IMG/VR virus record: IMGVR_UViG_3300012942_000037 | Span: 13,245-77,244 of that record | DNA length: 64,000 nt | Reading direction: 5' to 3' (one strand) | From: a virus | Lineage: Duplodnaviria; Heunggongvirae; Uroviricota; Caudoviricetes | Shown here: in pieces, positions 7,780-61,043 of the stretch | Position numbering within the stretch: position 1 is the first letter of the stretch | Layout: each line of letters opens with the position of its first letter | The notes under the pieces: model-generated | Seen by the model: the letters and a program-made list of their open reading frames with translations, nothing else | Database searches by the model: none | What the model was told of the DNA's origin: nothing | Translations under genes and position numbers: made by a program

Positions 7780-9444
7780 CTATTCTTGGCTTGGCATCAG
7801 GTGTGTGATATCTCGAGCAACACTTTGGATTTCAATGAGTTTGCCTTCTTCATCAAAGATGCCACGATCGATCCAATCTTGCCAACGGATTTCTTCATGA
7901 CGTTGAATGCGATGAATGCCCCGCCTCACTTCATGCTCAGGCCGGATTTCTAGCATGTAGTCTTTGAACTTCTGGTGGTCACTCTCGGGGATTACCTCAA
8001 AGAGCGAGAAGCCGTTGATATCCTCGAGCTCTACATCAAAGTAATCTCGGAAGGTCTGGTTGCTGAATGTGATCTCGAACTTGCTATTGAAACACACCAC
8101 CATATCGATGGTATTATCAATGATCGTCTTGTAGCGCTCTCTAGCCGTTTTGAGTTGGGTCTCGATATCTTTGAATTCCGTCACATCACGGACGATTGCG
8201 ATTCTAGCTTCCGCATTATCCCACTCAATTGCCCGACTATTCACAGCTACTTCTTTGACATCTCCTTCCTTAGTCAGGAATAGCGTCTCATAAGACTTAT
8301 CGTCAGTCAGGTTAGCCTCGGAGATGATCTTCTCACGTTCCAAAGGATGAAGTAGGTCAAATGGATTAAGCTTCTCGAGTTCAGCATCGTTGTAACCAGT
8401 CAGGTTATAGGCTCGCTCGTTCCAATCCATGAGCTTTTTGTAATTATGGATGAACATGGATTCAGATGAAGCATCACTGAATGCTCTGAAATGAGATTCA
8501 CTCCGACTGAGGTCAGTGTAGGCCTTCTTGAGTTCGGTGGTATCGTAGAAGACTAGGATCCATTGAACTGCCTGATAGCCTTTGAAAACTGGAGTGATAT
8601 GAACATCGAACCATAGCTTCTCAGTATTCTCGAACTCTAGTTGGACTTCATGGCGAGCGGTAATCTCCTCACCTAGCGTTCGCCTAACTAGCCAATAAGA
8701 ATGATCAATACCCAGGATTTCACGTAGGTTCTTCCCCCTCAGTTCACCACGTTTCGTATTGGTAAGCCGGGCGAATCCTTCGTTTACAAAGGTGATCTCA
8801 TAATCCGGGCCGTTCTTCTCAAGGATCACAAAACCAGTGTTGGAGGAATCGATGGTAGTCAGGAGTTCTTGGTTCTTCTCGGCAAGCTCTTTCATGATCT
8901 TAGAGCTGCGAACTCGGTGGGTGACATTCCTGATTAGAATGATGTAGTAGGTCTTGCTATTGCTGCGAGTGAATTTGCTCGCACCAACATCGACATAAAT
9001 CTTGGTTCCATCCTGGCAGATACCCATGAACTCTTCATAATGGACGGTCGCAAAATCATCTTCTTCGTTGACCTGTCCCATCATGTTTTCCATGAAGTCA
9101 GAATTGACAACTATGCCTTCAGCGAACTGGAATAGGAGTGATAGACTCTTACCAATGACTTGGCGTTTTCGCCAACCAAACATGGATTCAGCAGCTGGAT
9201 TGAAGCTCTCGATGTTACCATCAGCATCTACCAGGAGTAGGGCGTCACTAAGAAGTCTAGATGTTTGGTCGATCTGGTTTGCGTAATCATCAATTCGGGC
9301 TTGTAATGCTGTGGTAACGTCTTGGGCTAGATCCATTGTGCCTTTGGCGGCCTTCTCTAGAGCTTCGCTACTATCGAGGGCCGCCTTTAGACTTGCGGAT
9401 CGTGCCTTCTTTCGATCTATCTTGGATTGCCAGAACCACTTCAT
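7780..9444 (-). CDS. multi-PAS domain sensor protein with no output domain
   Basis: An approximately 120-aa coiled-coil N-terminus is followed by about five PAS-like repeats (for example LLVDADGNIESFNPAAESMFGWRKRQVIGKSL; VILEKNGPDYEITFVNEGFARLTN). I see no kinase or DNA-binding domain. Confidence 0.7.
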   Translation of the reverse strand: MKWFWQSKIDRKKARSASLKAALDSSEALEKAAKGTMDLAQDVTTALQARIDDYANQIDQTSRLLSDALLLVDADGNIESFNPAAESMFGWRKRQVIGKSLSLLFQFAEGIVVNSDFMENMMGQVNEEDDFATVHYEEFMGICQDGTKIYVDVGASKFTRSNSKTYYIILIRNVTHRVRSSKIMKELAEKNQELLTTIDSSNTGFVILEKNGPDYEITFVNEGFARLTNTKRGELRGKNLREILGIDHSYWLVRRTLGEEITARHEVQLEFENTEKLWFDVHITPVFKGYQAVQWILVFYDTTELKKAYTDLSRSESHFRAFSDASSESMFIHNYKKLMDWNERAYNLTGYNDAELEKLNPFDLLHPLEREKIISEANLTDDKSYETLFLTKEGDVKEVAVNSRAIEWDNAEARIAIVRDVTEFKDIETQLKTARERYKTIIDNTIDMVVCFNSKFEITFSNQTFRDYFDVELEDINGFSLFEVIPESDHQKFKDYMLEIRPEHEVRRGIHRIQRHEEIRWQDWIDRGIFDEEGKLIEIQSVARDITHLMPSQE

Positions 9445-9445
9445 G

Positions 9446-9691
9446 TTAGAGCTTCGATTTGATCTCGATGAGAACCATTTTGAGACCGTTTAGAGCCTCA
9501 GTGATTGTGATGTTATTCTTGGAGTAATCGTCAATGATCTTGTAAATCTTCTCATCCTTCTTCTCGAGTTGCTTCATCTGCCTGAAACAATACCACCCGA
9601 GCGCCATGATGATGCCAAGGAGAATAGCCGTCAAAGCGCCGGCTTCCCCACTAGCAATGAGAGAGACAATGCTTTGAATCAAATCACCCAT
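9446..9691 (-). CDS. small membrane protein
   Basis: An 81-aa hydrophobic N-terminus is followed by a charged tail. Confidence 0.45.
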   Translation of the reverse strand: MGDLIQSIVSLIASGEAGALTAILLGIIMALGWYCFRQMKQLEKKDEKIYKIIDDYSKNNITITEALNGLKMVLIEIKSKL

Positions 9692-9863
9692 GCGCTGTCT
9701 CCTTAATGCGACCTATACCATATTTACCCAAAACGCTTCCAAGCCAGGTTGTAAACTGCTTATATTTCTGCGACCGTTGACCTGATATGGTAAATATCAA
9801 GGATATCCAATATGCGAGTAGCCAATGACTCTTTCTGAGCTCTTTGGGGACAATCCCCTACAA

Positions 9864-10001
9864 ATGTCTCTTGAGGAACGCCAATTCCTAGAGGCAGCAA
9901 GACATCTATGGTCTGACCAATTTGAAGCAATCATCCGTGAGAATAGAGGCCCAAAAGCCAAGACTCGGATTGTAGTCAAGAAGGGTAAGCAAAATGGATA
10001 A
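9864..10001 (+). CDS. possible 45-aa small ORF
   Basis: ATG at 9864 gives MSLEERQFLEAARHLW... It was not in the ORF track because it is under 60 aa. Confidence 0.2.
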   Translation: MSLEERQFLEAARHLWSDQFEAIIRENRGPKAKTRIVVKKGKQNG

Positions 10002-11313
10002 GTTCGATCTAGCTGATACCCTAGTTCAATATGGTGTCTCGGATGACGATGCTCAGAAACTCAAAGGAGAGATCTCCGGTGATGATCTGATGGATCTGAT
10101 TTCATATCTTAAGAATAACGGTCAGGGTGTACAGTTGAATAAGGCCTCAGATATTCTTGGTAAATATGGCATTACGCTCAGGAGCAAGAAGGATATGGAC
10201 AACTACCTAGGTGCGAAATACGAGAGTCTTCAACAGGGTAAGGAACTCGATGAAACTTTTGGTATGATGTCACCACTCGCTGAAGCATTTACCTATGCCG
10301 TTGAAGTCAATGATCAAACTAGAGACCGAGTTCTTGACTGGTTGGATGAGAATCAGGTAAACTACCAGGCTACCAGCCCTACCAATTACCGCATCGAATG
10401 TGGTGATCGTGATGTGGCATATCGCACTGGCCGGGCGTTGTCTGAGATCCTCAGGAAGCCAACGGTGCGTGATTCCGTTGAGATTGAGGAAAAGATGAGC
10501 AAGAATCCAGACAAGCGTGTCAAAGCAGCGAAAGCCAAGATGGCTGATATTAAGCCTCGCAATCCGGTAGTAGCTGCGGTCAAAACCCGTAGTGGCGCCG
10601 GCGCCCATGACGGCGGTAAGGATCCACGTAAGGTGGATAAGTTCGGTCGTGGAGCCAAGCACAAGCCTCGTTTTGACGAGGAGATCGAAAGTGATAACCT
10701 GAATGAGGGAGTGATGGGTATGAAGCCAGTGAATCCACTTTTCCGCCTGCGCGAACTCGCAGGTCTACCAATGAACGGTCTGGATGAAGATGACTTTGAT
10801 GGCATTGAAATCCCCGAGGTTCCTCAGACGGATCCAGATGGCCCTCTAGCACCTGGCCCTGTTGATATGGATGATTCATCCGACAATGAGGGTGGCATGA
10901 TGGATACAGGTCTAGCTGGTGGAATGGATGATCTTGCTTCTGAGGATACGCCATCCGATCTAGATGAACCATCGGATGATATGGATGATATGAACACCTT
11001 GGATAACACTGACGACGTGAATGATCTCGCTGATAACGATATCGGTGCCATTACTCCTTCGGATGCTGGTGTGCCAGGAGATCTAGGTAGTGATCCAGTT
11101 GAGGCAGTTCCTGGTATGGATCCTATGATGCCAACTCAGAGCGATGCTATGTCACAGATTGAAGATGCTCTGAATAGCATCCAGTCTGGTCTAGCTGACA
11201 TCCGACTTTCAGAATACAAGAGCCTGATCCAGAAGCTTCAGGATCTCACCAACCAGGCCCAAATGATGGGTCGTGATTACCTAGGCGAGCGTTTCGAACG
11301 TCGCAGGAAGTAA
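9994..11313 (+). CDS. hypothetical acidic protein
   Basis: 439 aa with very D/E/M-rich DDMDD-type repeats in the C-terminal half. Confidence 0.5.
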   Translation: MDKFDLADTLVQYGVSDDDAQKLKGEISGDDLMDLISYLKNNGQGVQLNKASDILGKYGITLRSKKDMDNYLGAKYESLQQGKELDETFGMMSPLAEAFTYAVEVNDQTRDRVLDWLDENQVNYQATSPTNYRIECGDRDVAYRTGRALSEILRKPTVRDSVEIEEKMSKNPDKRVKAAKAKMADIKPRNPVVAAVKTRSGAGAHDGGKDPRKVDKFGRGAKHKPRFDEEIESDNLNEGVMGMKPVNPLFRLRELAGLPMNGLDEDDFDGIEIPEVPQTDPDGPLAPGPVDMDDSSDNEGGMMDTGLAGGMDDLASEDTPSDLDEPSDDMDDMNTLDNTDDVNDLADNDIGAITPSDAGVPGDLGSDPVEAVPGMDPMMPTQSDAMSQIEDALNSIQSGLADIRLSEYKSLIQKLQDLTNQAQMMGRDYLGERFERRRK

Positions 11314-24095: not shown

Positions 24096-24504
24096 GCTGG
24101 TTGACCGCATCAGATTGGCCTTTTCAATTCTGGTAGCGCCAAGGCACATAGTTGGATCGCAAACTGGTCTGCCAATCACCTACGATCCAGTGAACCGCCG
24201 TCTGGTCATCGAGGGTGATTTTGAGATCCATGCTAAGGGCAACCTATATCTGAATTCGGATAAGCACGTGGTCGTCCATAGTGGTAATACCGGCGGTCAT
24301 TATACCCATGCGATCTGGCTTAATCCAGATCTGGAGGATGAATATGCTATCCATGTCGAAGATTGTGAATCAGGAAGCCTTAGACAGCCAGATCTACAAT
24401 CCAACAACCAAGCCGGCTGTCTTGATGCTCCAGCAGATCATGGAGACCACACCAGTTCCTGCTCCATCTGCGACTCAGCAAAATCCTCCACCTCCGCTGG
24501 TTGA
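24073..24504 (+). CDS. hypothetical protein, beta-rich, possibly a spike or baseplate component
   Basis: GDFEIHAKGNLYLNSDKHVVVHSGNTGG. I inferred the start at ATG 24073. It overlaps the next ORF, and I cannot resolve which frame is genuine across 24341-24504. Confidence 0.3.
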   Translation: MSRQFLTELVDRIRLAFSILVAPRHIVGSQTGLPITYDPVNRRLVIEGDFEIHAKGNLYLNSDKHVVVHSGNTGGHYTHAIWLNPDLEDEYAIHVEDCESGSLRQPDLQSNNQAGCLDAPADHGDHTSSCSICDSAKSSTSAG

Positions 24505-25267
24505 TTCCAGTGATACCAGCATAGTTCCTCCTGAGCTTAAGGAACATGTTGATGCCTTCTTCGCTCTTCCAACTACCAACCCTTACCATGGCGTGTTGGT
24601 TAATCCGGCTTCGTGTCTGATTGATGATATCCGTGGTAGTCTTGATGATTTGAATAATGCGGGACAGGCCTTGGATAATGCCTCGGGCCAGACTGATTGG
24701 TCTGATTACCAGGATGACTTTGATCAGGATAGCCAGGATATCAACTCTGACTTGGATTCAATTCAGGATCACACTGATCGTCTAACCAGCAACCTACCAA
24801 GCCTGGCTGGTGTGGCTCAAGGTGCTCTAGCACTAGCTACTGTAATGAACCTCCTGAGCAATCCATGCTTAGGTCTGGATGGTATGTTGGGAAGCATTAT
24901 GGATTCTGGTAAACAGCTTCTCAACGATGTCACTAATCAGATCAAGGCAGGTGTGAGTCAAGTCAATAATGCTCTAAGTGATCTCACGAGTGCCATTCAA
25001 TCTGGAGTACAGAGTGCTATTAGTGCGGCGAAGGCAGCTATTAGCCCTCTTATGGACCAGATCAAAGATGGTATCTCGGTGGCAAAACAACAGGTCAGTG
25101 CCTTCATTAGCAAGGCTCAAACTGAGGTTATGAATTTTGCCAAAGCAGCTCTGGCGCAGCTTCGTCAGGGTCTAGCTGAACTTATGGCCAACCTTCCTCA
25201 GGATCCTTGTTTAAAAGGCCTCCTAACAAGTGCTGCCACTGGTGCTGCGGCAGCTATCATAAAATGA
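24341..25267 (+). CDS. hypothetical protein (Ser/Ala-rich helical C-terminus)
   Basis: The ORF track shows 24281..25267; the start is uncertain. Confidence 0.4.
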   Translation, partial: NMLSMSKIVNQEALDSQIYNPTTKPAVLMLQQIMETTPVPAPSATQQNPPPPLVDSSDTSIVPPELKEHVDAFFALPTTNPYHGVLVNPASCLIDDIRGSLDDLNNAGQALDNASGQTDWSDYQDDFDQDSQDINSDLDSIQDHTDRLTSNLPSLAGVAQGALALATVMNLLSNPCLGLDGMLGSIMDSGKQLLNDVTNQIKAGVSQVNNALSDLTSAIQSGVQSAISAAKAAISPLMDQIKDGISVAKQQVSAFISKAQTEVMNFAKAALAQLRQGLAELMANLPQDPCLKGLLTSAATGAAAAIIK

Positions 25268-26241
25268 CCAAAGCGGCAGTTAGGAAGGGTGATAAGTGTA
25301 CAGGCCATGGTGACGCCAAACCACGGCCTTGTGACCAGGGATCACCAGATACATTCATCAACGGTAAGGCGGCGCATCGGCAAGGTGATCATTGGGCTGT
25401 ACATAAGAGCCATGATAGCCACCTAGCCAAGGGCTCTGATTGTGTTTTCGTGAACGGTAAGGGTCAGGGTAGAGTTGGTGATCCGATCCTTTGTGGCTCC
25501 AGGTGTCAACAAGGTAGCCCGAATGTCTTTGTAGGTGATAACAGCTCTAGTGGCACTTCTAGCCAGAGTAGCCAGGGTGCCGCTTCAGCACCTATTGATT
25601 ATTCAAATCCATACCGCTTTGAAGGCGGAGCGGGTGCGAATGGTTATTCAGGTTCTGGCACCATTGAAACTGAAGGTGGTGTCACGGGTGCTACTGATGA
25701 TGCCCCTCCAGCATCTGATCCTGATTCACAAGAACCGCTAGATGCGAGTGATGATGATGTTGATTGGCTTACTACGTGTATGATTGACGAGGCAGGCAAT
25801 CAGAGCCAGAAGGATGCCTGGGCCGCGGTTGCCGCTGTAGTGGTGGATCGCCTTCAAACTGGTAAAGCAACTGGTACAGTCAATCCAGCATGGAAGGGGA
25901 CGATCAAAGGAATAGTTTTGGCTAATGGTCAGTTTTCAGGCTTCTACTTTGAGATGATCAACCGCAAATATACCAGAGTCGTAGCTAGCAAGGATTGGGC
26001 TGCGGCCGAGAAACGTGGTAAGCAGAAAATGGCCGCTTATCGGAAGCGATCTCAATGGAATGCCTTTCATGAGGTAGCCCAGCAGGTAGTTAGCGGAACA
26101 TATAATGGAGGAGCGGCATGGCGACTTGTGAAGAGCAGACCAGCCCTCATGTATTGTAATTTGGCTATCTCGAATCCACCCTGGGCTACCCAGAGCAAAT
26201 ATGTGACTAAGATTGAGGATCACACGTTCTTCTTAGCTTGA
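25264..26241 (+). CDS. PAAR-like tail-tip protein fused to a SleB-type cell-wall hydrolase domain
   Basis: The N-terminus has GDKCTGHGD...FINGKAAHRQGD...FVNGKGQGRVGD repeats, which are PAAR-like. The C-terminus has DEAGNQ...AVAAVVVDRL...NGQFSGF, a Hydrolase_2/SleB-like signature. The ATG overlaps the upstream stop (ATGA). Confidence 0.55.
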   Translation: MTKAAVRKGDKCTGHGDAKPRPCDQGSPDTFINGKAAHRQGDHWAVHKSHDSHLAKGSDCVFVNGKGQGRVGDPILCGSRCQQGSPNVFVGDNSSSGTSSQSSQGAASAPIDYSNPYRFEGGAGANGYSGSGTIETEGGVTGATDDAPPASDPDSQEPLDASDDDVDWLTTCMIDEAGNQSQKDAWAAVAAVVVDRLQTGKATGTVNPAWKGTIKGIVLANGQFSGFYFEMINRKYTRVVASKDWAAAEKRGKQKMAAYRKRSQWNAFHEVAQQVVSGTYNGGAAWRLVKSRPALMYCNLAISNPPWATQSKYVTKIEDHTFFLA

Positions 26242-26266
26242 CATCTTGGTGCTTTGTTGCTATATA
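26238..26266 (+). promoter_or_regulatory. sigma70-like promoter for the tmRNA gene
   Basis: TTGACA, a 17-nt spacer, then TATATA. Confidence 0.6.
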
Positions 26267-26272
26267 GATGAT

Positions 26273-26337
26273 GCTATTGAAGACCGAAGCCTAGTATCGA
26301 CTAGCGGACGCGGGGGCAGTACCCGCCAGGTCCACCA
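26273..26337 (+). ncRNA. ssrA: tmRNA acceptor piece of a permuted, two-piece ssrA
   Basis: It ends GGACGCGGGGGCAGUACCCGCCAGGUCCACCA: a T-arm-like hairpin, the 3' acceptor strand CAGGUCC, then ACCA. The 5' end is approximate. Confidence 0.6.
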
Positions 26338-26504
26338 TAGCAAGTGACCTAGGAGCACTCAGAGCAATCTGGGCGGCGCCAAAACCACTGAGGGAATCGA
26401 AGGATCTCAACCGGATCTGGGTCCTGAGGATGGTATGAGGAAGGGTGGATGAAAGTGGGGCACCGCGGAAGGCCTCATGAGTAAGGTAAGTCACTTGCTT
26501 TGCT

Positions 26505-26700
26505 GGGCCTGAACTAGGATCGACGTGGAAGAGAACGGCAGAGAGAAGATCCAGGCAACTGGTGAAGCGATGGTGAGGGTGGCTCCTCTAAAAGGCCACG
26601 CAGAATACCTGCAAACGACAACACTGTCGAGGTTGCGCTCGCTGCCTAAGGTAGCGCGGGTAACCGCCTAAAGTCTTAGGGCTTCGACTCCTTAAGCGCG
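26505..26700 (+). ncRNA. ssrA: tmRNA coding piece of a permuted ssrA, with tag ORF 26609..26647
   Basis: It starts GGGCCUGAACUAGGAUCGACGUGG (compare E. coli GGGGCUGAUUCUGGAUUCGACGGG). Its GGGCCUG pairs with the upstream CAGGUCC and includes a G3-U wobble. From the resume GCA the tag reads ANDNTVEVALAA-stop. GGCUUCG at 26678 pairs with CGAAGCC at 26285. The 3' end is approximate. Confidence 0.65.
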
Positions 26701-26900
26701 GTATGGTTCCACCGGGCAACAGAACGGGCCACTCTTCCTGATACTCTTGACCTATTGGTAAACTCCGTTACTCTAGAAGGACAACGGGGCAAATCGATAT
26801 GTGACATCAAGTGACTGACTAGATGGGAGTAAACCCACAATAATCTTCATAATACGGGTACGCATCCAGGGCTTAACATCTCCAATTATAGGGGATCTAT

Positions 26901-28610
26901 ATGGCACAGGGTGAACCAGTTGATTTTTCATGGATTAGGCAATCGCTTACCTATGATAAAGCCAGCGAGGACAGAGTGGATAAAGCAATCAAGTCCGACA
27001 TCAATATCAAGATGCTTACCGAACTCGCGCCGACTATCATATGGACGCGGAACGCTAAGTGGGATTTGACCTATATCAACTCATATTGGTTCGAATTCAC
27101 AGGTTGTGAGGATCGTCCAGTCAGAGAGATCAACTGGCAGGAATTCATCCATCCTGATGATCTCAAAGGAGTCACGGATTACTGGAACACAGCTCTTGAA
27201 CTCCAACTTGAGTTCAAGGTTGATCTACGTCTTCGTCGCCGAGATGGTGAATACCGATGGTTCCAATCAGTCGGCCGACCAGTCACCAATCAGGCTGGTG
27301 AAGTTATTCAATGGCTTGGTGTTTCATCGATCATTCAGGACCTCAAAGACGCCCAAGAAGAAACTGAACGCCTCCGTCAGAAACTTGAAGAAAAGGTTCT
27401 CGAGCGTACACGAGCTCTTGAAGAAGCTCAGGCACAGGTTCTCGCCGAAATTAGTGCTCGACAAGCCACCCAGGATGCTCTCCGCCAAGCACAGAAGATG
27501 GAGAGTGTTGGTCAATTAACTGGTGGCATAGCACATGATTTCAACAACATGCTCACTGTGATCATCGGCAATCTCGAACTCCTCAAGATGAGCGCTCCAA
27601 AACTAGGCGATAATCCAGTCGCAAAACGCATGGAGCGGAATGTTAGGATGGCTATTGAGGCATCCATGAAGGCAGAGAAGCTTACCGCTCAGTTGTTGGC
27701 TTTCTCAAGAAAAGCCCGTCTCCAGCTGGAGCGTCTTGATGCCAATGTGGTTGTCATCGGGGTAAAGGAAATGGTCGAGAGAGCTGTTGGTCTTTCAGTT
27801 AGCTGCGACATTAAGATCCAGGAAGACCTATGGCTTTGCTTGAGTGACAAGACCCAGCTTGAAAGCGCAATCATCAATCTAGCTATCAATGCTCGAGATG
27901 CCATGCCGGAAGGCGGTAAACTTTGTATCTCGACTGCCAACAAAGTGATGGAGGATCTCCGCTTTGTTAGCGTTTCAGTCAGTGATACTGGTCTGGGTAT
28001 GAACCAGGAAACTCTGGAGAAGGCTTGTGAACCGTTCTTCACTACCAAGGATGTTGGCAAGGGTTCAGGTCTTGGCCTTTCGATGGTTTACGGTTTCTGC
28101 GAGCAATCAAATGGTAAACTGCTCATCGAGAGCGAAGAGGGCAAGGGCACGATCGTTGAAATGCTCTTCCCCTTCACTGCTGGTGAGACTATCGAAGAGA
28201 CGCAAGCTGAAGAGGATTTCAATTTCGATGCCGCTAAGCAAAGCATCCTAGTAGTGGATGATGAACCAGCGGTCAGAGAGCTGGCCTGCCAATTGCTAAC
28301 TGATGCTGGCTTTAACGTAATCAGCGCTCAAGATGGTCAATCGGCGATTAAGATCATCCAAGACTCCACCATACCGTTGGATCTGCTATTTACAGACATT
28401 GTGATGCCTGGTGGTATTGATGGGTTTGGCTTGGCTAAAATCACCAAACAGGAACGACCCACCCTTCCGATTATTTTCACAACAGGCCATGCGGAGGTCG
28501 CCCTCAAGGAATTGAAGAAGGACCTCACGCAGAAGATCAAGGTGATTGGTAAGCCTTATCGTTTGAATGAGTTGAAGCAGATGATTCTACATGAACTGGC
28601 AATTCAGTAA
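26901..28610 (+). CDS. PAS-containing hybrid histidine kinase (CckA-like: PAS, DHp, CA, REC)
   Basis: PAS domain ([18 protein letters not shown]...[14 protein letters not shown]). H-box [22 protein letters not shown]-box [11 protein letters not shown]-boxes DTGLGM / [10 protein letters not shown]-terminal receiver [12 protein letters not shown]...[10 protein letters not shown]...KPY. Confidence 0.8.
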
Positions 28611-28667
28611 TATTGATTTCAGACACCTAGCCAGTTATTAGATGGGTTCTACCAAACAAAAGGAAGT

Positions 28668-28853
28668 GTGGTCGTGAGTGTATGGAACCTGCGGGCTGAT
28701 CCCGTGTCTAAAGAAATCGTCGAAGCATGGCTCAAGGAAGAAGCCTTGGAAGGTTACGTGATCAGTGTCAAACCTGAGGCCATGCAGATTGGCTTTTCTA
28801 ACATCGATGATGCCTTTAGGTTCCGACTTCAATTTGACGAGGTTCTGATCTGA
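28668..28853 (+). CDS. small protein, a divergent member of the FKL-motif family
   Basis: Its C-terminus DDAFRFRLQFDE parallels the DAMLFKLAWG motif. Confidence 0.35.
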   Translation: MVVSVWNLRADPVSKEIVEAWLKEEALEGYVISVKPEAMQIGFSNIDDAFRFRLQFDEVLI

Positions 28854-28865
28854 CCATAAGCCTAC

Positions 28866-28900
28866 GGAATATGGGTCAGAGCTATTTCGGCCCATATTCC
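28866..28900 (+). terminator. stem-loop terminator
   Basis: GGAATATGGG-loop-CCCATATTCC followed by a T-rich tract. Confidence 0.45.
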
Positions 28901-29085
28901 AACTACTTGCTGTTTTGTATGCTGGCGCCAAAGTCTAGACTAGACTGGCGTCATAATCTTCAATAGCTTGTGTGAACTGCTTACAACGCGCTTTGCGCAA
29001 TTTAGTTGCGAAGCCAGCGTAGATTTTTGTGGAGGCGTATAGCCAAGGTTGTCGTAGAGATCGATCCCCTCAAGTTGCGTAGGTT

Positions 29086-29613
29086 ATGATGAGCCTGAAT
29101 GACTTTAAGACTGCGACGACCTTGATTAAGGCTATGGAAGATGGACCCCAATACGTAAGGGTTACTGCTGGATCACGCATTGGAACCATAGGCAGGGTTA
29201 TGATGGTGCGGACCAAATATTACAGCGCTCATGACTATCAGTTGGCTGTGAAAGGTCGGCGCAGCTTTTGGATGAAAGGTAGTGATCTCGAGCATCTACC
29301 TAACCACCGTTCCGGCACTCACTATATTGTCAATCATGAGACCCCTACCTACAACGATCTAATGGGTCGCCGTATTGAGGTAGGTCAGACCATCCTATTC
29401 CCCCGAGGTTGTGAAGGTGCCCGAGTTGATATGGTTATGGGCACCGTACGTCGGATCAGCAACAAAGGGGCGATCTACGCGAAACTCTTCAAGAGTGGCC
29501 AGGGTAATGACCTGGGTGATGGGCTTGTCAGAGTTGGTAAGCCAGGCAGCGCTATGATAATCGATAAGGGCACGACTGATCAGGTAATGTTGGCAAAGTT
29601 GGCCGCGTTCTAA
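29086..29613 (+). CDS. hypothetical protein
   Basis: 175-aa ORF. Confidence 0.45.
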   Translation: MMSLNDFKTATTLIKAMEDGPQYVRVTAGSRIGTIGRVMMVRTKYYSAHDYQLAVKGRRSFWMKGSDLEHLPNHRSGTHYIVNHETPTYNDLMGRRIEVGQTILFPRGCEGARVDMVMGTVRRISNKGAIYAKLFKSGQGNDLGDGLVRVGKPGSAMIIDKGTTDQVMLAKLAAF

Positions 29614-29625
29614 GAAAGGGAGTCT

Positions 29626-30000
29626 ATGTCGAATGGTCGTATTCTTCTAGTTGAAGATGAGCCAATGCTCCACTTCCTTTGGGAAGACATGTGTGCGATC
29701 AGTGATTTCGAAATAGCCTTTACTGCGATGACCTGTCAAGAAGCCATGGCCTACTTCCAGGATCATCATGCTGAACTATCGGGTGTGATCCTTGATGTGA
29801 ACCTCCACGGGGAAACAAGCGGCCCAGTCGCGGAATATCTCAAACTGCTATCCATACCAGTTATTGTTTCAACAGGTAGCCATCCTGATTCATTACCAGA
29901 AATCTTCAGGGGCTGGCCAACCCTCATGAAGCCATATAGGCCACATGATATAACTGGTATCCTGCCGTCTTTGGCCTTCTGTAAGCAAATAGTCAGGTAA
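29626..30000 (+). CDS. stand-alone receiver (REC) domain protein
   Basis: LLVEDEP acidic pocket, a candidate phospho-acceptor Asp in GVILDVNL, then VSTGS and the conserved MKPY. There is no output domain. Confidence 0.55.
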   Translation: MSNGRILLVEDEPMLHFLWEDMCAISDFEIAFTAMTCQEAMAYFQDHHAELSGVILDVNLHGETSGPVAEYLKLLSIPVIVSTGSHPDSLPEIFRGWPTLMKPYRPHDITGILPSLAFCKQIVR

Positions 30001-30151
30001 CCGCTCCTACATTCCGCTTGCGTCACTTGCTGATTTCAATCATATAGTGTGAGCGTGATGCTGTCCCTCAACAGAGCACGTTGGGGTCTGGTGGTGAGAG
30101 GGGGCTAACTTCTCATCAACCAGACCCCGTCAGTCTGGCTAAGTAGATCGT

Positions 30152-30454
30152 ATGGCAGACGATCTATTTCAATGGCCTCAACCCAACACGACCGTCGTAA
30201 ACCTCAAAGAGGAACACTATGACGTTCGTATTGATCGCAAGACCAAATGGGGAAATCCATTCGTAGTTGGGCGAGACGGCACCCGCGAGGAATGTATCAG
30301 CCAGTTCGCCGATTGGATTGTGGAACAATCTCACCTCATGGAAGCTCTACATGAGCTCAAGGGCAAGCGTCTGGGTTGTTGGTGTCATCCCCAAGCATGT
30401 CATGGTAACGTGCTAGCCAAGTTGGCAGATGCGAGTAGGGTTCCTACCAAATAA
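30152..30454 (+). CDS. hypothetical protein (DUF4326-like)
   Basis: KWGNPF...CWCHPQACHG. Confidence 0.45.
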   Translation: MADDLFQWPQPNTTVVNLKEEHYDVRIDRKTKWGNPFVVGRDGTREECISQFADWIVEQSHLMEALHELKGKRLGCWCHPQACHGNVLAKLADASRVPTK

Positions 30455-30494
30455 GATTTGACAGGTGGTTCACCATTCGCTTAAAGCGGATCAC

Positions 30495-31127
30495 ATGGAC
30501 TTCATGGCATTCCTCACCGCTCCGCAGAATCTGGCGTTCCTAATAGCTGGCATTCTCGTCATGGCTATCTTCATCATCGAGTTCCTAGGAACGATGGTTG
30601 GTTTCTCACTGAGTCACCTGGGACCCGACTTCCATATTGACCTAGATCATGATGGCACTCCTGATCATCTTGAGGGTGCTAGCCTTATGGGCTGGCTCAA
30701 CCCAGGCGGTGTGCCGTTCATGATTTTTATCACCCTGGGGGTGACGATCTTTGCGATTATTGGTTATGCCATTCAGGCAGTTACCTGGTCCTACACAGCG
30801 TATTTGCTGTCAGGATTGATCATTGGTCCGATCTCATTCTTATTGATGCTCATATGCGTCCGCCCTTTGACTCGTTGGGTGAACAAGATCCTGCCTAGGG
30901 AGGAGAGTAGCGATGTCAGTCTCAATAGCCTAATTGGTGAGACTGGTGTAGTGACCGTGGGCCCTGTAACCAAAGGTCAATTTGGTTTCATTCGGGTCCG
31001 CGACAAGTTTGGTACTGATCATTCGATCCAGGTCGAAGCAAGCAATGATGAGGTGTTTGCGATTGGTTCTGAAGTTCAACTGGTTGGGCCTCACCCAACC
31101 AATCTGTATGCGTATCTAATCCGCTAA
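30495..31127 (+). CDS. NfeD-like membrane protein (membrane anchor plus C-terminal OB-fold)
   Basis: Multiple TM helices are followed by GETGVVTV...GFIRV..., an OB-fold-like C-terminus. It lies directly upstream of the SPFH gene. The ORF track begins at 30465. Confidence 0.6.
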   Translation: MDFMAFLTAPQNLAFLIAGILVMAIFIIEFLGTMVGFSLSHLGPDFHIDLDHDGTPDHLEGASLMGWLNPGGVPFMIFITLGVTIFAIIGYAIQAVTWSYTAYLLSGLIIGPISFLLMLICVRPLTRWVNKILPREESSDVSLNSLIGETGVVTVGPVTKGQFGFIRVRDKFGTDHSIQVEASNDEVFAIGSEVQLVGPHPTNLYAYLIR

Positions 31128-31139
31128 CTGGAGAATACA

Positions 31140-32876
31140 ATGTCCATCAAGTTCATTGGCTTGCTGGTCGGGCTGGCTGTCGTAGGATTCCTGATCCTCG
31201 GCATGATCATCACCCGGCTCTATAAGCGAGCTTCCAAGGAAACTGCTTTTGTCCGCACCGGTATGGGCGGTCAGAAGGTGATCAAGGATGGCGGCGCCCT
31301 CGTCATTCCAGTCGTTCATGAAACCCTCGACATTAACATGCAGACTCTTCGTCTGTCGGTTAATCGTGGTGGTCAGAATGACTCGCTTATTACCAAGGAT
31401 CGTCTGCGTGTTGACGTGAACGCTGAGTTTTACGTTCGTGTTGCTCCAGATACCGAGAGCATTGCTACTGCGGCTCAGACGCTTGGTAAGCGCACCATGG
31501 ATCCAAGTCAGCTAAGCACCCTCGTTGAGGGCAAGTTCGTTGACGCTTTGCGAGCCGCCGCTGCTTCGATGGATATGCAGGATCTGCATGAGAAGCGCAC
31601 TGAGTTCGTTCAGAAGGTCAAGACCACTGTTGCCGAGGATCTGAAGCAGAATGGTCTCGAGCTTGAGTCAGTCAGCCTGACCAACTTGAACCAGACTGAC
31701 ATCAGTCACTTCGATGCCAACAATGCTTTCGATGCTGAGGGTCTCGCGGTGATCGCCAAGGTCACCAACGCGCGCCGTAAGGAACGCAACGACATCGAGA
31801 AGCAGACCGAGGTTGAAATCGAGACTAAGAACCTCGAGACTACCAAGGCGACGCTGGCTCTGAAGCAGGATGGTGAGTTCGCCCGCCTGGATCAGGAGAA
31901 GCAGGTTCAGACTCGTGCTGCTGAGCAGGAATCGCAGCTTGCTATTGCTCGTGCCGAGCGTGAGCGGGAAGCACAGGTCGCTGCAGAATCAGCGAAGCAG
32001 GCGTCGGAGCAGGCTCGTATTGAACGCGAGCGCGGTGTCAAGGTGGCACAGACCCAGGCCGACCAGGATACTGAATTGGCTGCTCAGGCCTCGCGTATTG
32101 CGGTTGCCGAGAAGTCCGAGGCAGAGTCGAAGGCCAAGGCGAAGGCTGACGAAGCTCGCGCTGAAGCTACCAGGGCTGCTGAAAACGTAACTACCGTTTC
32201 GGCGACTGCTCGGGCGGATCGTGAAGCCCAGATTGCCGTTATTGCGGCAGAGGGTGAAGCGAAGCAGAAGGCAGCTAGTGTCACGGTTCAGGCCGAGGCT
32301 GAGCTCAAGGCTGCTGATTCACAGGCGAGGGCTAAGGAACGCCTTGCTGACGCAGACGCCAAGCGCTACCAGGTCGAATCCGAGGGTCAGCGTTCCATCC
32401 ATGAGGCTGGTAACGTAATCAGCCCTGAGAGCATGAACTTCCAGCTTCGGAAGGCCATGGTCGAGCGCCTGCCAGAAATCATCGAAGCGATGACCCGTCC
32501 AATCGAGAAGATTGACAGCTTCCGCGTCGTTCATATGAATGGCGGGCTGGGCACTGGTCAGACCAATGGTGAGGCTGGTTCGGTTGCGGAGAAGGGTAAT
32601 CTGCCAACGCAGATGACCAACGCGCTGCTGGATTATCGGATGCAGTCTCCGTTCGTAGACGCCCTGGGCAAGGAACTCGGTATCGACTTCTCCAAGGGCA
32701 TGAACGGCATGATGGAAGCGGCGGGCCTCTCCGTTGAGGTCTCGGATCTTCCGGAAGAGGTGGTCAAGCCATCCATTCCGAATGAAGCTGCTCAGCCGGT
32801 TACTACTCGTGAAGCCCCATTGGCACCCGAGGATAAGGCTGAAATCCAGAAGCTTGCTGGGATCGCCAACGGCTGA
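31140..32876 (+). CDS. flotillin-like SPFH/band-7 protein (YqiK/FloT-like)
   Basis: An N-terminal TM helix is followed by an SPFH domain and then a long Ala/Glu/Gln coiled coil (EAQ.. repeats). Length is 578 aa. Confidence 0.8.
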   Translation: MSIKFIGLLVGLAVVGFLILGMIITRLYKRASKETAFVRTGMGGQKVIKDGGALVIPVVHETLDINMQTLRLSVNRGGQNDSLITKDRLRVDVNAEFYVRVAPDTESIATAAQTLGKRTMDPSQLSTLVEGKFVDALRAAAASMDMQDLHEKRTEFVQKVKTTVAEDLKQNGLELESVSLTNLNQTDISHFDANNAFDAEGLAVIAKVTNARRKERNDIEKQTEVEIETKNLETTKATLALKQDGEFARLDQEKQVQTRAAEQESQLAIARAEREREAQVAAESAKQASEQARIERERGVKVAQTQADQDTELAAQASRIAVAEKSEAESKAKAKADEARAEATRAAENVTTVSATARADREAQIAVIAAEGEAKQKAASVTVQAEAELKAADSQARAKERLADADAKRYQVESEGQRSIHEAGNVISPESMNFQLRKAMVERLPEIIEAMTRPIEKIDSFRVVHMNGGLGTGQTNGEAGSVAEKGNLPTQMTNALLDYRMQSPFVDALGKELGIDFSKGMNGMMEAAGLSVEVSDLPEEVVKPSIPNEAAQPVTTREAPLAPEDKAEIQKLAGIANG

Positions 32877-32957: not shown

Positions 32958-33650
32958 ATGGAATGTATCGCCCATACTGGTCCTAGATCAATGAGGGATA
33001 GCATGTCAGGCCGTTTAGCTAAGATCGTTTCTTTGGGTGGAGTAGCTTGTGTCTTCACGGGTGGTATGATCACCCTCCCCTTTCACCAACTCAGTGACCT
33101 CGCCATTAGCTTACCATTATCTCTGATTACCGGCGCGGGTATTTGGCATTTCTGGCCGGGCCATCTACCAGCCAAACCAGACGTCGAACAACTATTCAGC
33201 GACCAGGAAGCTCTTAAGAGAGCTGGCGTGAGCAAGGCAGAGAGTATTGAAACTATCAGGCTGGTCAGTAACAAGCTAGATCACATCCTCATGTGTGCGG
33301 CTCAGATCAACGATCCAAAGATCACTCGTCGCATCCAAGCCCTTGATACCATTGGCAGGAAGATCATTGCTGACTTCCGCCAGAACCCCACAGGTATCAA
33401 ACAAGCTCAAACATGGATCCATGCCTATTTGGATCAGACCATCGATTGTGTGGATCAATACGCACAACTCCATATGACCAAAGTGCGTAATGATGAAATT
33501 CGCCGTCAGATGGTGGAATTTGAAGACATGCTTGTTGAGCTCCAGGAGAAGTCACAGGAATTGCTGGATAGGCTCCTATCCGCAGATACCACGACCTTTG
33601 AAGTCAATGTTTCAGTGTTTCGTGATATGATGAAGAACGAGGGAATCTAA
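32958..33650 (+). CDS. XpaC-like protein (5-bromo-4-chloroindolyl phosphate hydrolysis protein family)
   Basis: An N-terminal membrane anchor is followed by a helical domain. Adjacency to a TelA-like gene mirrors the Bacillus yaaN-xpaC arrangement. The start is uncertain. Confidence 0.4.
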   Translation: MECIAHTGPRSMRDSMSGRLAKIVSLGGVACVFTGGMITLPFHQLSDLAISLPLSLITGAGIWHFWPGHLPAKPDVEQLFSDQEALKRAGVSKAESIETIRLVSNKLDHILMCAAQINDPKITRRIQALDTIGRKIIADFRQNPTGIKQAQTWIHAYLDQTIDCVDQYAQLHMTKVRNDEIRRQMVEFEDMLVELQEKSQELLDRLLSADTTTFEVNVSVFRDMMKNEGI

Positions 33651-34810
33651 TGACCGAGGCTACTATGACACAAACCACGCCGACCCTAGCGCCTGAGACG
33701 GTTCAGACATTGGGTTCAACCTCGTTGGTTAGTTTGGCGCCAGCCAATACCGCCATCCAGATCACGAGTGTGCCAGAGGCACGCGCCAAGGAATTGGCAC
33801 AGAAGATCAACATCCATGACACCCAGAGTATCATTGGCTTCGGTGTTGAGGCTCAAAAGAGCGTTAGCCAGGTCAGTGATCAAATGCTTGACGGGGTTCG
33901 CACCAAGGATACCGGTCCGGCCGGAGAAGCTCTGAACCTCATGGTTCATGAGATGCGGGGTCTTGATTTCAGCAAGTTGAGTGAGAAGCCTGGTTTGATT
34001 TCACGCCTCCTCCGCAAGGCGGGTAAGGTGTCATTGTTCCTTGAGCAATATGAGACAGTTCAGGCTAAGATCAATAAGACCCAAGCGGTTCTCGATGGTC
34101 ATCGTATTCAGATGCTCCGAGGCGTGAAGATGCTTGATCTACTATACAACAAGACACTTGACCTGTTGTATAGCCTGGATGAGCAGATTGCTGCCGTTCA
34201 ATACAAACTCAATGAGGTCAACACCACTGATATTCCGGCTGCTAATGAGAAGGCCCAGCAAACCAGGGATATGGCAGATACCCAGGCAGTCTCGGATTTG
34301 ATTCAGGCTCGCGATGCTCTGGAGCGTAAACTCCATGATCTCCAGCTGACCAGGCAGATTACGATCCAAGCCTTACCTAGCATCCGTATTGTTCAATCCA
34401 ATGAGGTCGGGCTTTCAGAGAAGATCCAATCACAGATCCTCAATGCTTTGCCTCTTTGGAAGCGCAACATGGCTCTTGCTGTGGAGATGGCCAAGACACA
34501 GAATGCCGCCAAGGCCACCAAGGCGGCTGCTGATTTCACAAACGAGCAGCTTCGCATTGGTGCCACAATGCTTCAGCAATCCAACCAAGCCGTTCGAACC
34601 GAGGTGGAACGTGGTATTGTTGATGTGGATAGCGTCAAGTTTGCTAATGACCAGCTGATCCAGACCATCGAGGATACGATTGAGATTGCTCAGCAGGGTA
34701 AGGATATGCGAGCTCATGCTGAGCAGGAACTCGCCGAGGCTGAGCAGAAGCTCAAGGAGACCCTGCTTAGTGCGGCAAACCGTCATGCCAATATGAAGGC
34801 TTTGGCATGA
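33650..34810 (+). CDS. TelA-like (toxic anion resistance family) protein
   Basis: The 386-aa all-helical, coiled-coil-rich architecture and conserved spacing fit TelA/KlaB/YaaN-type proteins. Confidence 0.55.
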   Translation: MTEATMTQTTPTLAPETVQTLGSTSLVSLAPANTAIQITSVPEARAKELAQKINIHDTQSIIGFGVEAQKSVSQVSDQMLDGVRTKDTGPAGEALNLMVHEMRGLDFSKLSEKPGLISRLLRKAGKVSLFLEQYETVQAKINKTQAVLDGHRIQMLRGVKMLDLLYNKTLDLLYSLDEQIAAVQYKLNEVNTTDIPAANEKAQQTRDMADTQAVSDLIQARDALERKLHDLQLTRQITIQALPSIRIVQSNEVGLSEKIQSQILNALPLWKRNMALAVEMAKTQNAAKATKAAADFTNEQLRIGATMLQQSNQAVRTEVERGIVDVDSVKFANDQLIQTIEDTIEIAQQGKDMRAHAEQELAEAEQKLKETLLSAANRHANMKALA

Positions 34811-59726: not shown

Positions 59727-60983
59727 ATGAGTGAAACCAAAAAGAATCTGAGCTGCTCTTTCTGTAGCAAAAGGCAGGAAGACGTTCAGAAGCTGATTGC
59801 TGGTCCAGATGTTTTCATCTGTAATGATTGCGTACAGCTTTGCGCTGATATACTCAAAGAAGATGATAACGGTGTTGCTTCTTTGGGTTTCAAAGATGGT
59901 ATTCCATCCCCTCGCCAAATTAAAGAGTTCCTTGATCAATACGTGATCGGCCAGGATGAAGCCAAGATGGTCATGGGTGTGGCAGTTCACAACCATTACA
60001 AGCGCTTGGCCAATCCAGTAGTTGATGATGTGGAGCTCGAGAAGTCCAACATTCTTTTACTGGGCCCAACTGGCTCGGGTAAGACCCTCATGGCTAGGTC
60101 GATTGCCAAGCTTCTTGATGTGCCTTTCACCATTGCTGATGCGACCAGCCTTACTGAGGCTGGTTATGTGGGTGATGATGTCGAGACCATTATTTCACGC
60201 CTTTTACAAGTCTGCGATAATGACATTTCGAAGGCTGAACGCGGCATCATCTACTTGGATGAGGTGGATAAGAAAGCAAAGCGTGGTGACTCAGCTAGTA
60301 TTAGCCGTGATGTCTCGGGCGAAGGCGTTCAACAAGCCCTACTGAAGATCATTGAGGGCAGTGAAGTTCGAGTTCCAGTCACGGGTAACCGCAAACATCC
60401 AAACGCCGAAATGGCCGTTGTGAATACCAAGAATATCCTCTTTATCGTCGGTGGTGCTTTTGTAGGTCTGGATGATATCGTGGCAAAGCGTCTTAACAAG
60501 GGTAAGAGTGGCATTGGCTTCGGTGCTTCTATTCAGATGGCCGAAGATTCAAAGAAAGCAGCCAGTGAAGCATTGCTCAAGATGGTTGAACCTGAAGACC
60601 TGACCAAATTTGGTCTCATTCCTGAACTAGTTGGTCGCTTACCAGTCATTACCAATCTGGAAGAGCTGGATCAGGAGCAAATGGTAAAAGTACTGACTGA
60701 GCCAAAGAATGCTCTTGTGAAGCAATTCCAGAAGCAATTCCAACTAGCCGGTGTTGATTTGGAATTTGACGATGAGGCCCTCAAAGCTATTGCCAAGAAT
60801 GCTATCACACGGAAGACCGGGGCGAGAGGTCTTAGGAGCGTGATTGAGAAGCGATTGATCAAGGTCCAATTTGATCTTCCTGATCTCAAGGCTCAAGGGG
60901 CTCACGCGGTTCGAGTAAGCCAGGATGTAATCGATGGCTCGGCTGAACCACTAGTGGTTTATGAAAAGGCTGCTAATGAATGA
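59727..60983 (+). CDS. clpX: ATP-dependent protease ATPase subunit ClpX
   Basis: N-terminal C4 zinc finger (CSFCSKRQEDV...FICNDC), the IGF-loop-containing AAA+ domain, and Walker A LLLGPTGSGKT. Length is 418 aa. Confidence 0.9.
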   Translation: MSETKKNLSCSFCSKRQEDVQKLIAGPDVFICNDCVQLCADILKEDDNGVASLGFKDGIPSPRQIKEFLDQYVIGQDEAKMVMGVAVHNHYKRLANPVVDDVELEKSNILLLGPTGSGKTLMARSIAKLLDVPFTIADATSLTEAGYVGDDVETIISRLLQVCDNDISKAERGIIYLDEVDKKAKRGDSASISRDVSGEGVQQALLKIIEGSEVRVPVTGNRKHPNAEMAVVNTKNILFIVGGAFVGLDDIVAKRLNKGKSGIGFGASIQMAEDSKKAASEALLKMVEPEDLTKFGLIPELVGRLPVITNLEELDQEQMVKVLTEPKNALVKQFQKQFQLAGVDLEFDDEALKAIAKNAITRKTGARGLRSVIEKRLIKVQFDLPDLKAQGAHAVRVSQDVIDGSAEPLVVYEKAANE

Positions 60984-61043
60984 TTGACACCAAAGAGACC
61001 CGTGTTAATCTTCCATCTACCTAAAAGAAAGGAACTACTGTCT

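Follow-up and report, generated by a model that had tools for sequence, protein, structure and literature searches.

A hybrid histidine kinase and a stand-alone SdrG-class receiver in a clade of uncultured jumbo phages, a candidate viral two-component system

A 64,000-nucleotide stretch of a tailed phage genome (Caudoviricetes; IMG/VR record IMGVR_UViG_3300012942_000037, positions 13,245 to 77,244), referred to in its entirety as the window, encodes a soluble hybrid histidine kinase and, starting 1015 nt after the kinase stop codon, a stand-alone receiver. Each protein belongs clearly to a known family, and what is unusual is its occurrence in a virus. Uncultured jumbo phages of ~470-480 kb, which form a clade related to Sinorhizobium phage Phosso and Agrobacterium phage Atu_ph07, carry the pair as a fixed feature. 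We propose, with a probability of roughly 0.5, that kinase and receiver act as a virus-encoded two-component system that would exchange phosphate with the PhyR stress relay of the host, in a manner similar to the Caulobacter proteins CC2874 and MrrA.

The kinase

An earlier reading of the DNA, made from the sequence only and without database searches, had described the product of the gene at 26901 as a soluble, 569-amino acid (aa) kinase with PAS, DHp, CA and C-terminal receiver domains, and Pfam supports this domain layout. A single PAS_3 sensor domain is followed by a coiled-coil linker, a HisKA (DHp) domain, a HATPase_c (CA) domain and a fused receiver; the profile search proposed by that reading for HisKA, HATPase_c and Response_reg recovered all three (Table 1). 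No transmembrane helix was found in the kinase, where the maximum Kyte-Doolittle value for a 19-residue segment is 1.24, compared to 2.83 for the YqiJ membrane protein used as a control.

The predicted phospho-acceptor, His212, lies within the H-box (aa 208-225) and aligns with H322 of CckA. The sequence-only reading had named missing catalytic residues as the observation that would speak against it, yet an alignment of nine phage kinases showed every one of them in place: H212, the N-box residues N326 and N330, D362-G364-G366 of the G1 box, F379, and G388-G390-G392 of the G2 box are all invariant. The fused receiver carries the acidic residues D453/D454, the phospho-acceptor D499, T528 and K551-P552, among which D454, D499 and K551-P552 are invariant in the same nine proteins. 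Judged by these residues, the kinase is apparently catalytically competent.

The best NCBIfam match of the kinase was PRK13557 (388 bits, aa 183-562), a model for LOV/PAS hybrid kinases of proteobacteria. The phage protein resembles these kinases in its overall size and in its PAS-kinase-receiver order, however the match is confined to the core and receiver and falls below the cut-off of 631 bits. Its PAS_3 domain also lacks the flavin-binding NCRFLQ motif. The window kinase is therefore not a blue-light sensor, and its identity as a LOV photoreceptor was ruled out. Among the PHROGs, phrog_5982 matches the kinase (E 4e-112); this family is without annotation.

The stand-alone receiver

The receiver-only protein that the sequence-only reading had placed 1 kb downstream of the kinase is present, with both the residues and the predicted fold of a receiver. 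Across its 124 aa it carries an acidic pair (E10-D11), the phospho-acceptor D57, T83 and K102-P103, and the catalytic residues of the D/D/T/K type are invariant in 12 phage receivers. Pfam Response_reg scored 26.6 bits on this protein alone (E 7e-6), compared to a gathering score of 30.2. The AlphaFold2 model is a confident receiver fold (pLDDT 90), in which beta4 (79-83) and beta5 (99-101) are joined by only two three-residue turns, leaving no alpha4 helix.

A degenerate or missing alpha4, a PFxFATG[G/Y] motif and the lack of an aromatic switch residue on beta5 characterise the FATGUY class of receivers (PMC9981736), and the comparisons by sequence, profile and predicted fold led to this class. 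A phmmer search of the PDB with the window receiver returned SdrG of Sphingomonas melonis (5IEB, E 9e-15) and Sma0114 of Sinorhizobium meliloti (2LPM, E 4e-13), followed by PhyR receivers. When a profile built from phage receivers only was run against solved structures, Sma0114 (91 bits) and SdrG (89 bits) stood apart from the PhyR receivers (~47 bits) and CheY (~36 bits), with all others at or below 47 bits. Foldseek likewise placed SdrG 5IEB first for the receiver model (E 4e-9, 38% identity, TM 0.78-0.82), and behind it the PhyR receivers 4G97, 5UXV and 3N0R, which come from Brucella, Bartonella and Caulobacter. The receiver shares its length and degenerate alpha4 with SdrG, as well as the D57/T83/K102 register, including the T83-K102 spacing of 19 and the residue numbers themselves. 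The position three residues before the lysine is non-aromatic (T, V, I, L or A) across the receiver clade, so that the aromatic switch residue on beta5 is absent here as it is in SdrG. All 12 of the clade receivers matched PRK13435-type and PhyR-family models in NCBIfam.

The beta4 motif is less orthodox. It reads PVIVSTGS in the window receiver and PV[IVL]V[SC][TS]G[SH] across the clade; relative to PFxFATG[G/Y], P, T and G are retained, V stands in place of both F residues, and S or C in place of A. The canonical form, LPFVFATGY, is seen in the closest relatives outside phages. Because the name-giving motif is only partly kept, the receiver is filed as a divergent member of the SdrG/Sma0114 group. 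Its sequence, profile matches and predicted fold all identify it as a single-domain regulator of the SdrG/Sma0114 class.

The sequence-only reading had likened the receiver to CpdR instead, and this identity was ruled out: CpdR is absent from the five NCBIfam families matched by the window receiver (E<=0.01) and from the 25 listed for the 12 clade members, and the nearest relatives are SdrG, Sma0114 and PhyR receivers. A score of 77 bits on the Brucella CpdR model belongs to the fused receiver of the kinase rather than to the stand-alone protein, and is below the 180-bit cut-off.

The receiver gene was left uncalled by the gene finder on the source contig (L004, 12726-13100), although it was called on related contigs. 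Automated annotation of the source contig would thus miss the second half of the kinase-receiver pair.

Conservation and selection

A database search found ~29 phage-borne kinase homologues with 44-88% identity, and every contig inspected shows the same phage locus. The large and small subunits of ribonucleotide reductase (RNR) are followed by glutaredoxin, small open reading frames (ORFs), a gap that holds the tmRNA, the kinase, an ORF of ~61 aa (S61), an ORF of ~174 aa (X175) and the receiver; beyond the receiver come DUF4326, YqiJ, flotillin, an XpaC-like protein, TelA, SNase and NADAR. The order kinase-S61-X175-receiver was found in the window and in six further distinct phage loci, with kinase identities of 47-88%. 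The kinase relative at 44% identity occupies the same RNR-linked position; its contig stops just past the kinase and shows synteny on the upstream side only. Cellular relatives of the kinase begin at ~40% full-length identity and range downward from there, and all named ones are alphaproteobacterial. In tblastn searches of 50,697 phage records, no kinase match reached 30% identity, and many of the matches were to bacterial contigs deposited as phage; the receiver gave no match.

Between the window and its closest relative (L003), the ratio of non-synonymous to synonymous change (dN/dS) was 0.047 for the kinase and 0.031 for X175. For the receiver and its closest relative, the proportion of non-synonymous differences (pN) was 0.15 and that of synonymous differences (pS) was saturated at 0.80; against more distant relatives, the kinase gave a pN of 0.22-0.24, again with saturated synonymous sites. 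Kinase and receiver are under strong purifying selection. As the ORFs are conserved in many metagenomic contigs with a dN/dS of about 0.05, they are not chance reading frames.

The input module of the kinase varies across the clade, while the core and the fused receiver remain constant. Forms with a single PAS (~570 aa), GAF plus PAS (745-763 aa) and two to three PAS domains (721 aa) were found, alongside a 689-aa form. Swapping of the input around a constant core and receiver is what would be expected if a functional sensor were being adapted to other cues.

In Phosso, the corresponding region (L019, 18400-23182) contains X175, YqiJ, SPFH, XpaC and TelA, and lacks the kinase, S61, the receiver and DUF4326; S61 gave no tblastn match there. 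Since Phosso is without both, the kinase and the receiver are additions of the uncultured clade.

Relationship to CckA and other known systems

CckA is built with an N-terminal membrane anchor and two PAS domains. The phage kinase has neither the anchor nor the second PAS domain. The sequence-only reading had nonetheless called it CckA-like, which is accurate to the extent that it belongs to a broad HisKA group that includes CckA, that the best solved-structure match to its core is the DHp-CA fragment of Caulobacter CckA (5IDJ, 126 bits) and that the CckA equivalog models are its second and third NCBIfam matches. It is not accurate as a statement of orthology. The equivalog models for Brucella and Caulobacter reached only 298 and 248 bits respectively, where the cut-off is 1000, and the core (aa 190-430) is 37% identical to CckA (146 bits), compared to 41-52%, median 48% (190-230 bits), for 91 other alphaproteobacterial PAS-hybrid kinases. 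The H-box, said to be typical of CckA-type kinases, is not diagnostic either: it is the mark of a large family and not of CckA, because AHDFNN occurs in 91/91 of these non-CckA relatives (and GG[IV]AHDFNN in 74/91). A strongly hydrophobic segment is absent from 87/91 of them.

The cyclic di-GMP switch of CckA involves Y514, K518 and W523 in the CA domain together with G318 and R374 in the DHp domain, which are strictly or highly conserved in orthologues (Dubey et al., PMC5026420). G318, R374 and Y514 have counterparts in the phage kinase (G208, R270 and Y397), and the CckA CA residue G515 is conserved as well. K518 is replaced by E401 in the window kinase and by Q in the other 28 phage homologues, and W523 by K406 in the window kinase and by K or R in 29/29. 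The receiver of CckA contains an FxSGY "FATGUY" segment, whereas ShkA-type receivers are without it (Bruderlin et al., PMC9981736); the beta4 motif of the fused phage receiver, PIIFTTGH, is FATGUY-like in the same way. The scan for CtrA boxes that the sequence-only reading had suggested found neither the full box TTAA-N7-TTAA (0 in 64 kb, 0.6 expected by chance) nor the half-site TTAACCAT (0 in 64 kb, 1.6 expected), which is weak evidence given such low expectations.

The scores below cut-off, the lower identity, the lack of a membrane anchor and the replacement of K518 and W523 together rule out CckA orthology. By profile and alignment, the kinase is placed as a paralogue within a wide HisKA group, with a PRK13557-like core and with CckA as a more distant member. 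It shares with the CckA-ChpT-CtrA/CpdR pathway the AHDFNN HisKA subgroup, the hybrid architecture, the FATGUY-like fused receiver and the four retained residues G318, R374, Y514 and G515, and differs in its soluble single-PAS form, its lost switch residues and its non-CpdR-like receiver partner.

The pair bears a closer resemblance to CC2874-MrrA and to the Pak-SdrG-PhyT-PhyR system, where a HisKA hybrid kinase with a C-terminal receiver is likewise combined with an output-less receiver of the FATGUY class in an alphaproteobacterial setting. Unlike CC2874-MrrA and SdrG, the phage pair is virus-encoded and has PVIVSTGS in place of PFxFATGY. In Sphingomonas, the genes for SdrG and its Pak kinases are scattered (PMC5898713), while the phage kinase and receiver are near neighbours.

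There is precedent for a histidine kinase in a phage genome: phiCDHM1, a Clostridioides difficile myovirus, encodes AgrC (PMC3901668). In contrast to the kinase described here, this is a membrane-bound, non-hybrid quorum-sensing kinase of the HPK10 type, carried by a temperate Firmicute phage with AgrB and AgrD and with no receiver partner. A survey of 224 jumbo phage genomes (Iyer et al., PMC7824862) discusses Ter/TelA genes, ClpX and a divergent cREC domain that never occurs with histidine kinases; the passages searched contain no mention of a classical kinase-receiver pair. A phage kinase partnered by a FATGUY receiver was not described anywhere in our literature search, whose coverage was incomplete.

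Proposed mechanism and alternatives

In Caulobacter, the classical HisKA hybrid kinase CC2874 rapidly phosphorylates the FATGUY regulator MrrA, for which its own receiver is dispensable, and takes the phosphate back under ATP depletion (Lori et al., PMC5964349). From phosphorylated MrrA the group moves on to PhyK and LovK, HWE/HisKA2 proteins that serve as phosphotransferases for PhyR (PMC5964349). The Sphingomonas relay runs comparably from Pak to SdrG, PhyT and PhyR (PMC5898713). By analogy, a cue sensed by the PAS domain in the infected cell would set the balance between the kinase and phosphatase activities of the phage protein. His212 would autophosphorylate and the phosphoryl group could pass directly to Asp57 of the phage receiver, with Asp499 of the fused receiver as an alternative acceptor or buffer. 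The phage receiver, having no output domain just as MrrA and SdrG have none, would then exchange phosphoryl groups with host HWE/HisKA2 phosphotransferases of the PhyK/LovK/PhyT type. Phosphorylated PhyR would thereby be raised or drained, setting the sigma-EcfG general stress response of the host during infection. The sequence data themselves establish the domain architecture, the intact catalytic residues, the family assignments, the conservation and the absence of both genes from Phosso. It is from the analogy that we infer that phosphate would pass from one phage protein to the other and that the stress relay of the host would be the target, be the effect activation or drain. No Hpt or ChpT-type gene was seen among the called genes of the 73 kb inspected, and X175, which lies between kinase and receiver, is not an Hpt protein, which fits a direct kinase-to-receiver transfer.

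Several observations weigh against this proposal. Regulators of the SdrG type are classically paired with HWE/HisKA2 kinases, whereas the phage kinase is a HisKA protein and CC2874 is the only cited exception. The FATGUY motif of the receiver is derived (PV[IVL]V[SC][TS]G[SH] versus PFxFATG[G/Y]). The two cellular kinase homologues whose surroundings were inspected are orphans with no adjoining receiver, so there is no visible sign that a cognate pair was inherited together. No homologue of PhyR, NepR or EcfG was seen on the phage, and the window contains no EcfG-type promoter (GGAAC-N16/17-CGTT), although with ~0.5 expected by chance this count is uninformative. The inspection for Hpt genes covered ~73 kb of a genome of ~470 kb, and the presence of the stress relay in the host is assumed.

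Kinase and receiver might instead serve a circuit internal to the phage, in which the receiver binds phage partners in response to the PAS cue. The likeliest partners would be the membrane-associated block of X175, YqiJ, flotillin, XpaC-like protein and TelA, and the output could be membrane remodelling, superinfection exclusion or the timing of lysis. Relative to Phosso, the kinase (with S61) and the receiver (with DUF4326) flank X175, an older lineage-core gene, at the head of this block; wherever a locus reaches the block, the arrangement is found again, L008 differing by two extra genes ahead of DUF4326. The genes are co-oriented with no convincing terminator between them, and single-domain receivers such as CheY, DivK and CpdR often work by binding a partner. 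The characterised SdrG, Sma0114 and MrrA proteins, however, are phosphotransfer intermediates and not allosteric binders. What speaks for an internal circuit is gene order alone, which may merely reflect an insertion hot spot beside the tmRNA, and a promoter and terminator scan at background level permits no operon inference. We regard such a circuit as rather unlikely, though it deserves consideration. A smaller likelihood attaches to the view, close to that of the sequence-only reading, that the kinase is a viral mimic of CckA which feeds or drains the host ChpT relay and so alters the phosphorylation of CtrA and CpdR, while the receiver would act in the manner of CpdR on ClpXP, including phage ClpX. 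The CckA structure and equivalog matches, the fused receiver with its CckA-like FxTG motif (PMC9981736) and its 77 bits on the CpdR model are all in keeping with this, as are the ClpX, ClpS and tmRNA genes of the phage and the co-precipitation of ChpT with MrrA in Caulobacter (PMC5964349). The evidence against orthology given above bears on mimicry too, from the low model scores and core identity to the soluble single-PAS architecture and the replacement of K518 and W523 in every phage homologue. In addition, CpdR does not figure among the NCBIfam families listed for the receiver and its 11 relatives, which are SdrG/Sma0114-like, full and half CtrA boxes are missing from the 64 kb, and inspection of 73 kb turned up no ChpT-like gene. 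The pair may be linked to ClpX, but nothing in the data points there.

That the two genes are mere passengers, picked up recently from a host and functionless for the phage, is hardly credible and largely refuted by the conservation data. It is true that the cellular kinase relatives are common alphaproteobacterial orphan hybrid kinases and that the nearest cultured phage is without both genes. Yet at least eight distinct phage lineages, down to 44% identity, have the kinase in the same RNR-linked position, all loci long enough to show it include the receiver as well, and no cellular protein exceeds ~40% full-length identity. Saturated synonymous sites, a dN/dS of about 0.05 and the invariance of all catalytic residues are equally at odds with a recent and functionless acquisition.

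Genomic context

The window is part of a jumbo phage genome, with genes for a DnaB-type helicase, a class I ribonucleotide reductase, topoisomerase II and virion structural proteins. It matches roughly 34.1-98.1 kb of the ENA contig ERZ27256360 k141_1147045 (125,051 bp). A 658-aa virion protein shares 37% identity with its counterpart in Phosso (469 kb) and 32% with that in Atu_ph07 (490 kb), and the kinase-receiver region is syntenic with Phosso; megablast found no close isolated phage at the DNA level. A genome size of ~470-480 kb for the clade follows from two related contigs, JGI Ga0310127_000018 (468,011 bp) and ENA ERZ28626999 SHEN23-1 scaffold_1 (480,938 bp). The host is very probably alphaproteobacterial, as the sequence-only reading had also concluded, because the relatives are Phosso and Atu_ph07, the tmRNA is of the alphaproteobacterial type and the named cellular relatives of the kinase are all from alphaproteobacteria.

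Table 1: Features of the window discussed in the text. Positions are those of the window.
Feature	Position (nt)	Strand	Evidence or remark
PAS-only protein, 554 aa	7780-9444	-	4-5 PAS by Pfam; no output domain
DUF7217 protein	24281-25267		adjoins the PAAR-hydrolase gene
PAAR motif fused to C-terminal cell-wall hydrolase (Hydrolase_2)	25207-26241	+
tmRNA, permuted, alphaproteobacterial type	26234-26740	+	directly upstream of kinase; ARAGORN; Rfam RF01849 115 bits, RF04321 73 bits
Hybrid histidine kinase, 569 aa	26901-28610	+	ORF, Pfam
PAS_3 (aa 57-141)	27069-27323	+	Pfam E 1.4e-15
HisKA/DHp (aa 204-271)	27510-27713	+	Pfam E 3e-7
H-box (aa 208-225)	27522-27575	+
Predicted phospho-acceptor His212	27534-27536	+	aligns with CckA H322
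HATPase_c (aa 316-426)	27846-28178	+	Pfam E 6e-18
Fused receiver, Response_reg (aa 449-562)	28245-28586	+	Pfam E 1.3e-19
S61, conserved 61-aa ORF	28668-28853	+	just 3' of kinase
X175, conserved 175-aa protein	29086-29613	+	predicted tandem KOW/SH3-like barrels
Stand-alone receiver, 124 aa, SdrG/Sma0114 (FATGUY) class	29626-30000	+
Phospho-acceptor D57 of stand-alone receiver	29794-29796	+
DUF4326	30152-30454	+	Pfam
YqiJ/NfeD-like	30465-31127	+	Pfam
Flotillin/SPFH	31140-32876	+	Pfam
XpaC-like PF10112	32958-33650	+	Pfam
TelA	33650-34810	+	Pfam
ClpX	59727-60983		zf-C4_ClpX + AAA
IF3	about 60984-61562

Between the kinase and the receiver, S61 has homologues in six loci (28-82% identity, dN/dS 0.13-0.26) and no Pfam or PHROG match. 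X175 consists of an N-terminal helix, two tandem KOW/SH3-like beta-barrels and a C-terminal helix. It was considered as a missing Hpt or ChpT protein and rejected on account of this fold, which is neither a four-helix bundle nor a DHp-like hairpin of helices bearing a conserved His. X175 also belongs to the core of the lineage: the Phosso homologue (28% identity) lies directly upstream of YqiJ-SPFH-XpaC-like-TelA, and Atu_ph07 has a structural homologue. Scanning 26000-30600 for promoters and terminators gave background-level results only.

Downstream, the order from DUF4326 to TelA is the same in L001, L002, L003 and L009; in L008 the order is kept as far as flotillin, where the locus ends, apart from the two additional genes that follow the receiver. 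The X175-YqiJ/NfeD-flotillin-XpaC-TelA block looks like a phage-borne membrane-stress or Ter-like module, ahead of whose YqiJ-TelA portion DUF4326 and the receiver have been inserted in the clade of the window. PADLOC detected no known defence system and gave only a weak, generic receiver match. In L009 (1-2986), the gene for the RNR large subunit is split, with an intein-splicing domain match, a 332-aa ORF between the parts and a NUMOD3 gene of the homing-endonuclease type nearby.

The sequence-only reading had reported a permuted tmRNA, and both ARAGORN and Rfam agree with it (tag ANDNTVEVALAA). The RNA has large insertions relative to the Rfam model, at ~500 nt compared to 355 model positions. 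The ClpX gene that had been assigned at 59727 was likewise supported by its Pfam domains, and is followed by IF3; genes for ribosomal protein S21 and ClpS lie just outside the end of the window. Together, tmRNA, ClpX, IF3, S21 and ClpS form the tagging, unfoldase and translation toolkit of one phage. Upstream of the tmRNA, the PAAR-hydrolase fusion is probably the tip of a tail spike with a lytic domain; its Phosso homologue is shorter and consists of PAAR only.

The protein at 7780-9444 had been read as a sensor with five PAS domains. It is indeed a multi-PAS protein with no output domain, but the number of domains recognised by Pfam is four to five. It could act as a further sensor or work together with the kinase. 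The gene is on the strand opposite to its neighbours, in a segment of lower GC content (0.454) with reversed GC skew.

True LOV versions of hybrid kinases were found in two other huge phages. The genes at L015:5632-7161 (IMGVR_UViG_3300031088_000008, 416,714 bp) and L013:5569-7158 (IMGVR_UViG_3300049988_000286, 499,572 bp) encode LOV-HisKA-HATPase-Rec kinases of ~510-530 aa with the canonical flavin-Cys motif RNCRFLQGE, scoring 645 and 575 bits respectively on PRK13557 (cut-off 631). Their motifs make them candidate phage-borne blue-light sensor kinases. No homologue of X175 or of the stand-alone receiver was found beside either, and L015 carries a second hybrid kinase at 8674-10731.

Implications

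Sensing of peptide or quorum signals by phages is already known. A two-component pair that is complete and conserved in jumbo phages of the lytic type would demonstrate that viruses can also carry their own bacterial-style sensory phosphorylation circuits. The placement of the receiver in a promiscuous phosphorylation-hub class of the alphaproteobacterial stress response would offer a virus a concrete and testable means of turning a host-wide stress regulon on or off. The swapping of sensors within the clade, along with the LOV kinases of other huge phages, suggests that one and the same output is tuned to a different cue from phage to phage. In its widest form, the idea is that huge phages of alphaproteobacteria bring their own sensory input into the PhyR/sigma-EcfG response of the host, through a kinase with an exchangeable sensor that loads or drains a mimic of SdrG/MrrA; this generalisation is a tentative one. 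It is directly testable, given that the proteins are small and soluble and that cultured relatives with tractable hosts exist in Phosso and Atu_ph07. If it is true, the virus would be able to read the physiological state of the cell, or light, and to set the stress programme of its host to suit replication.

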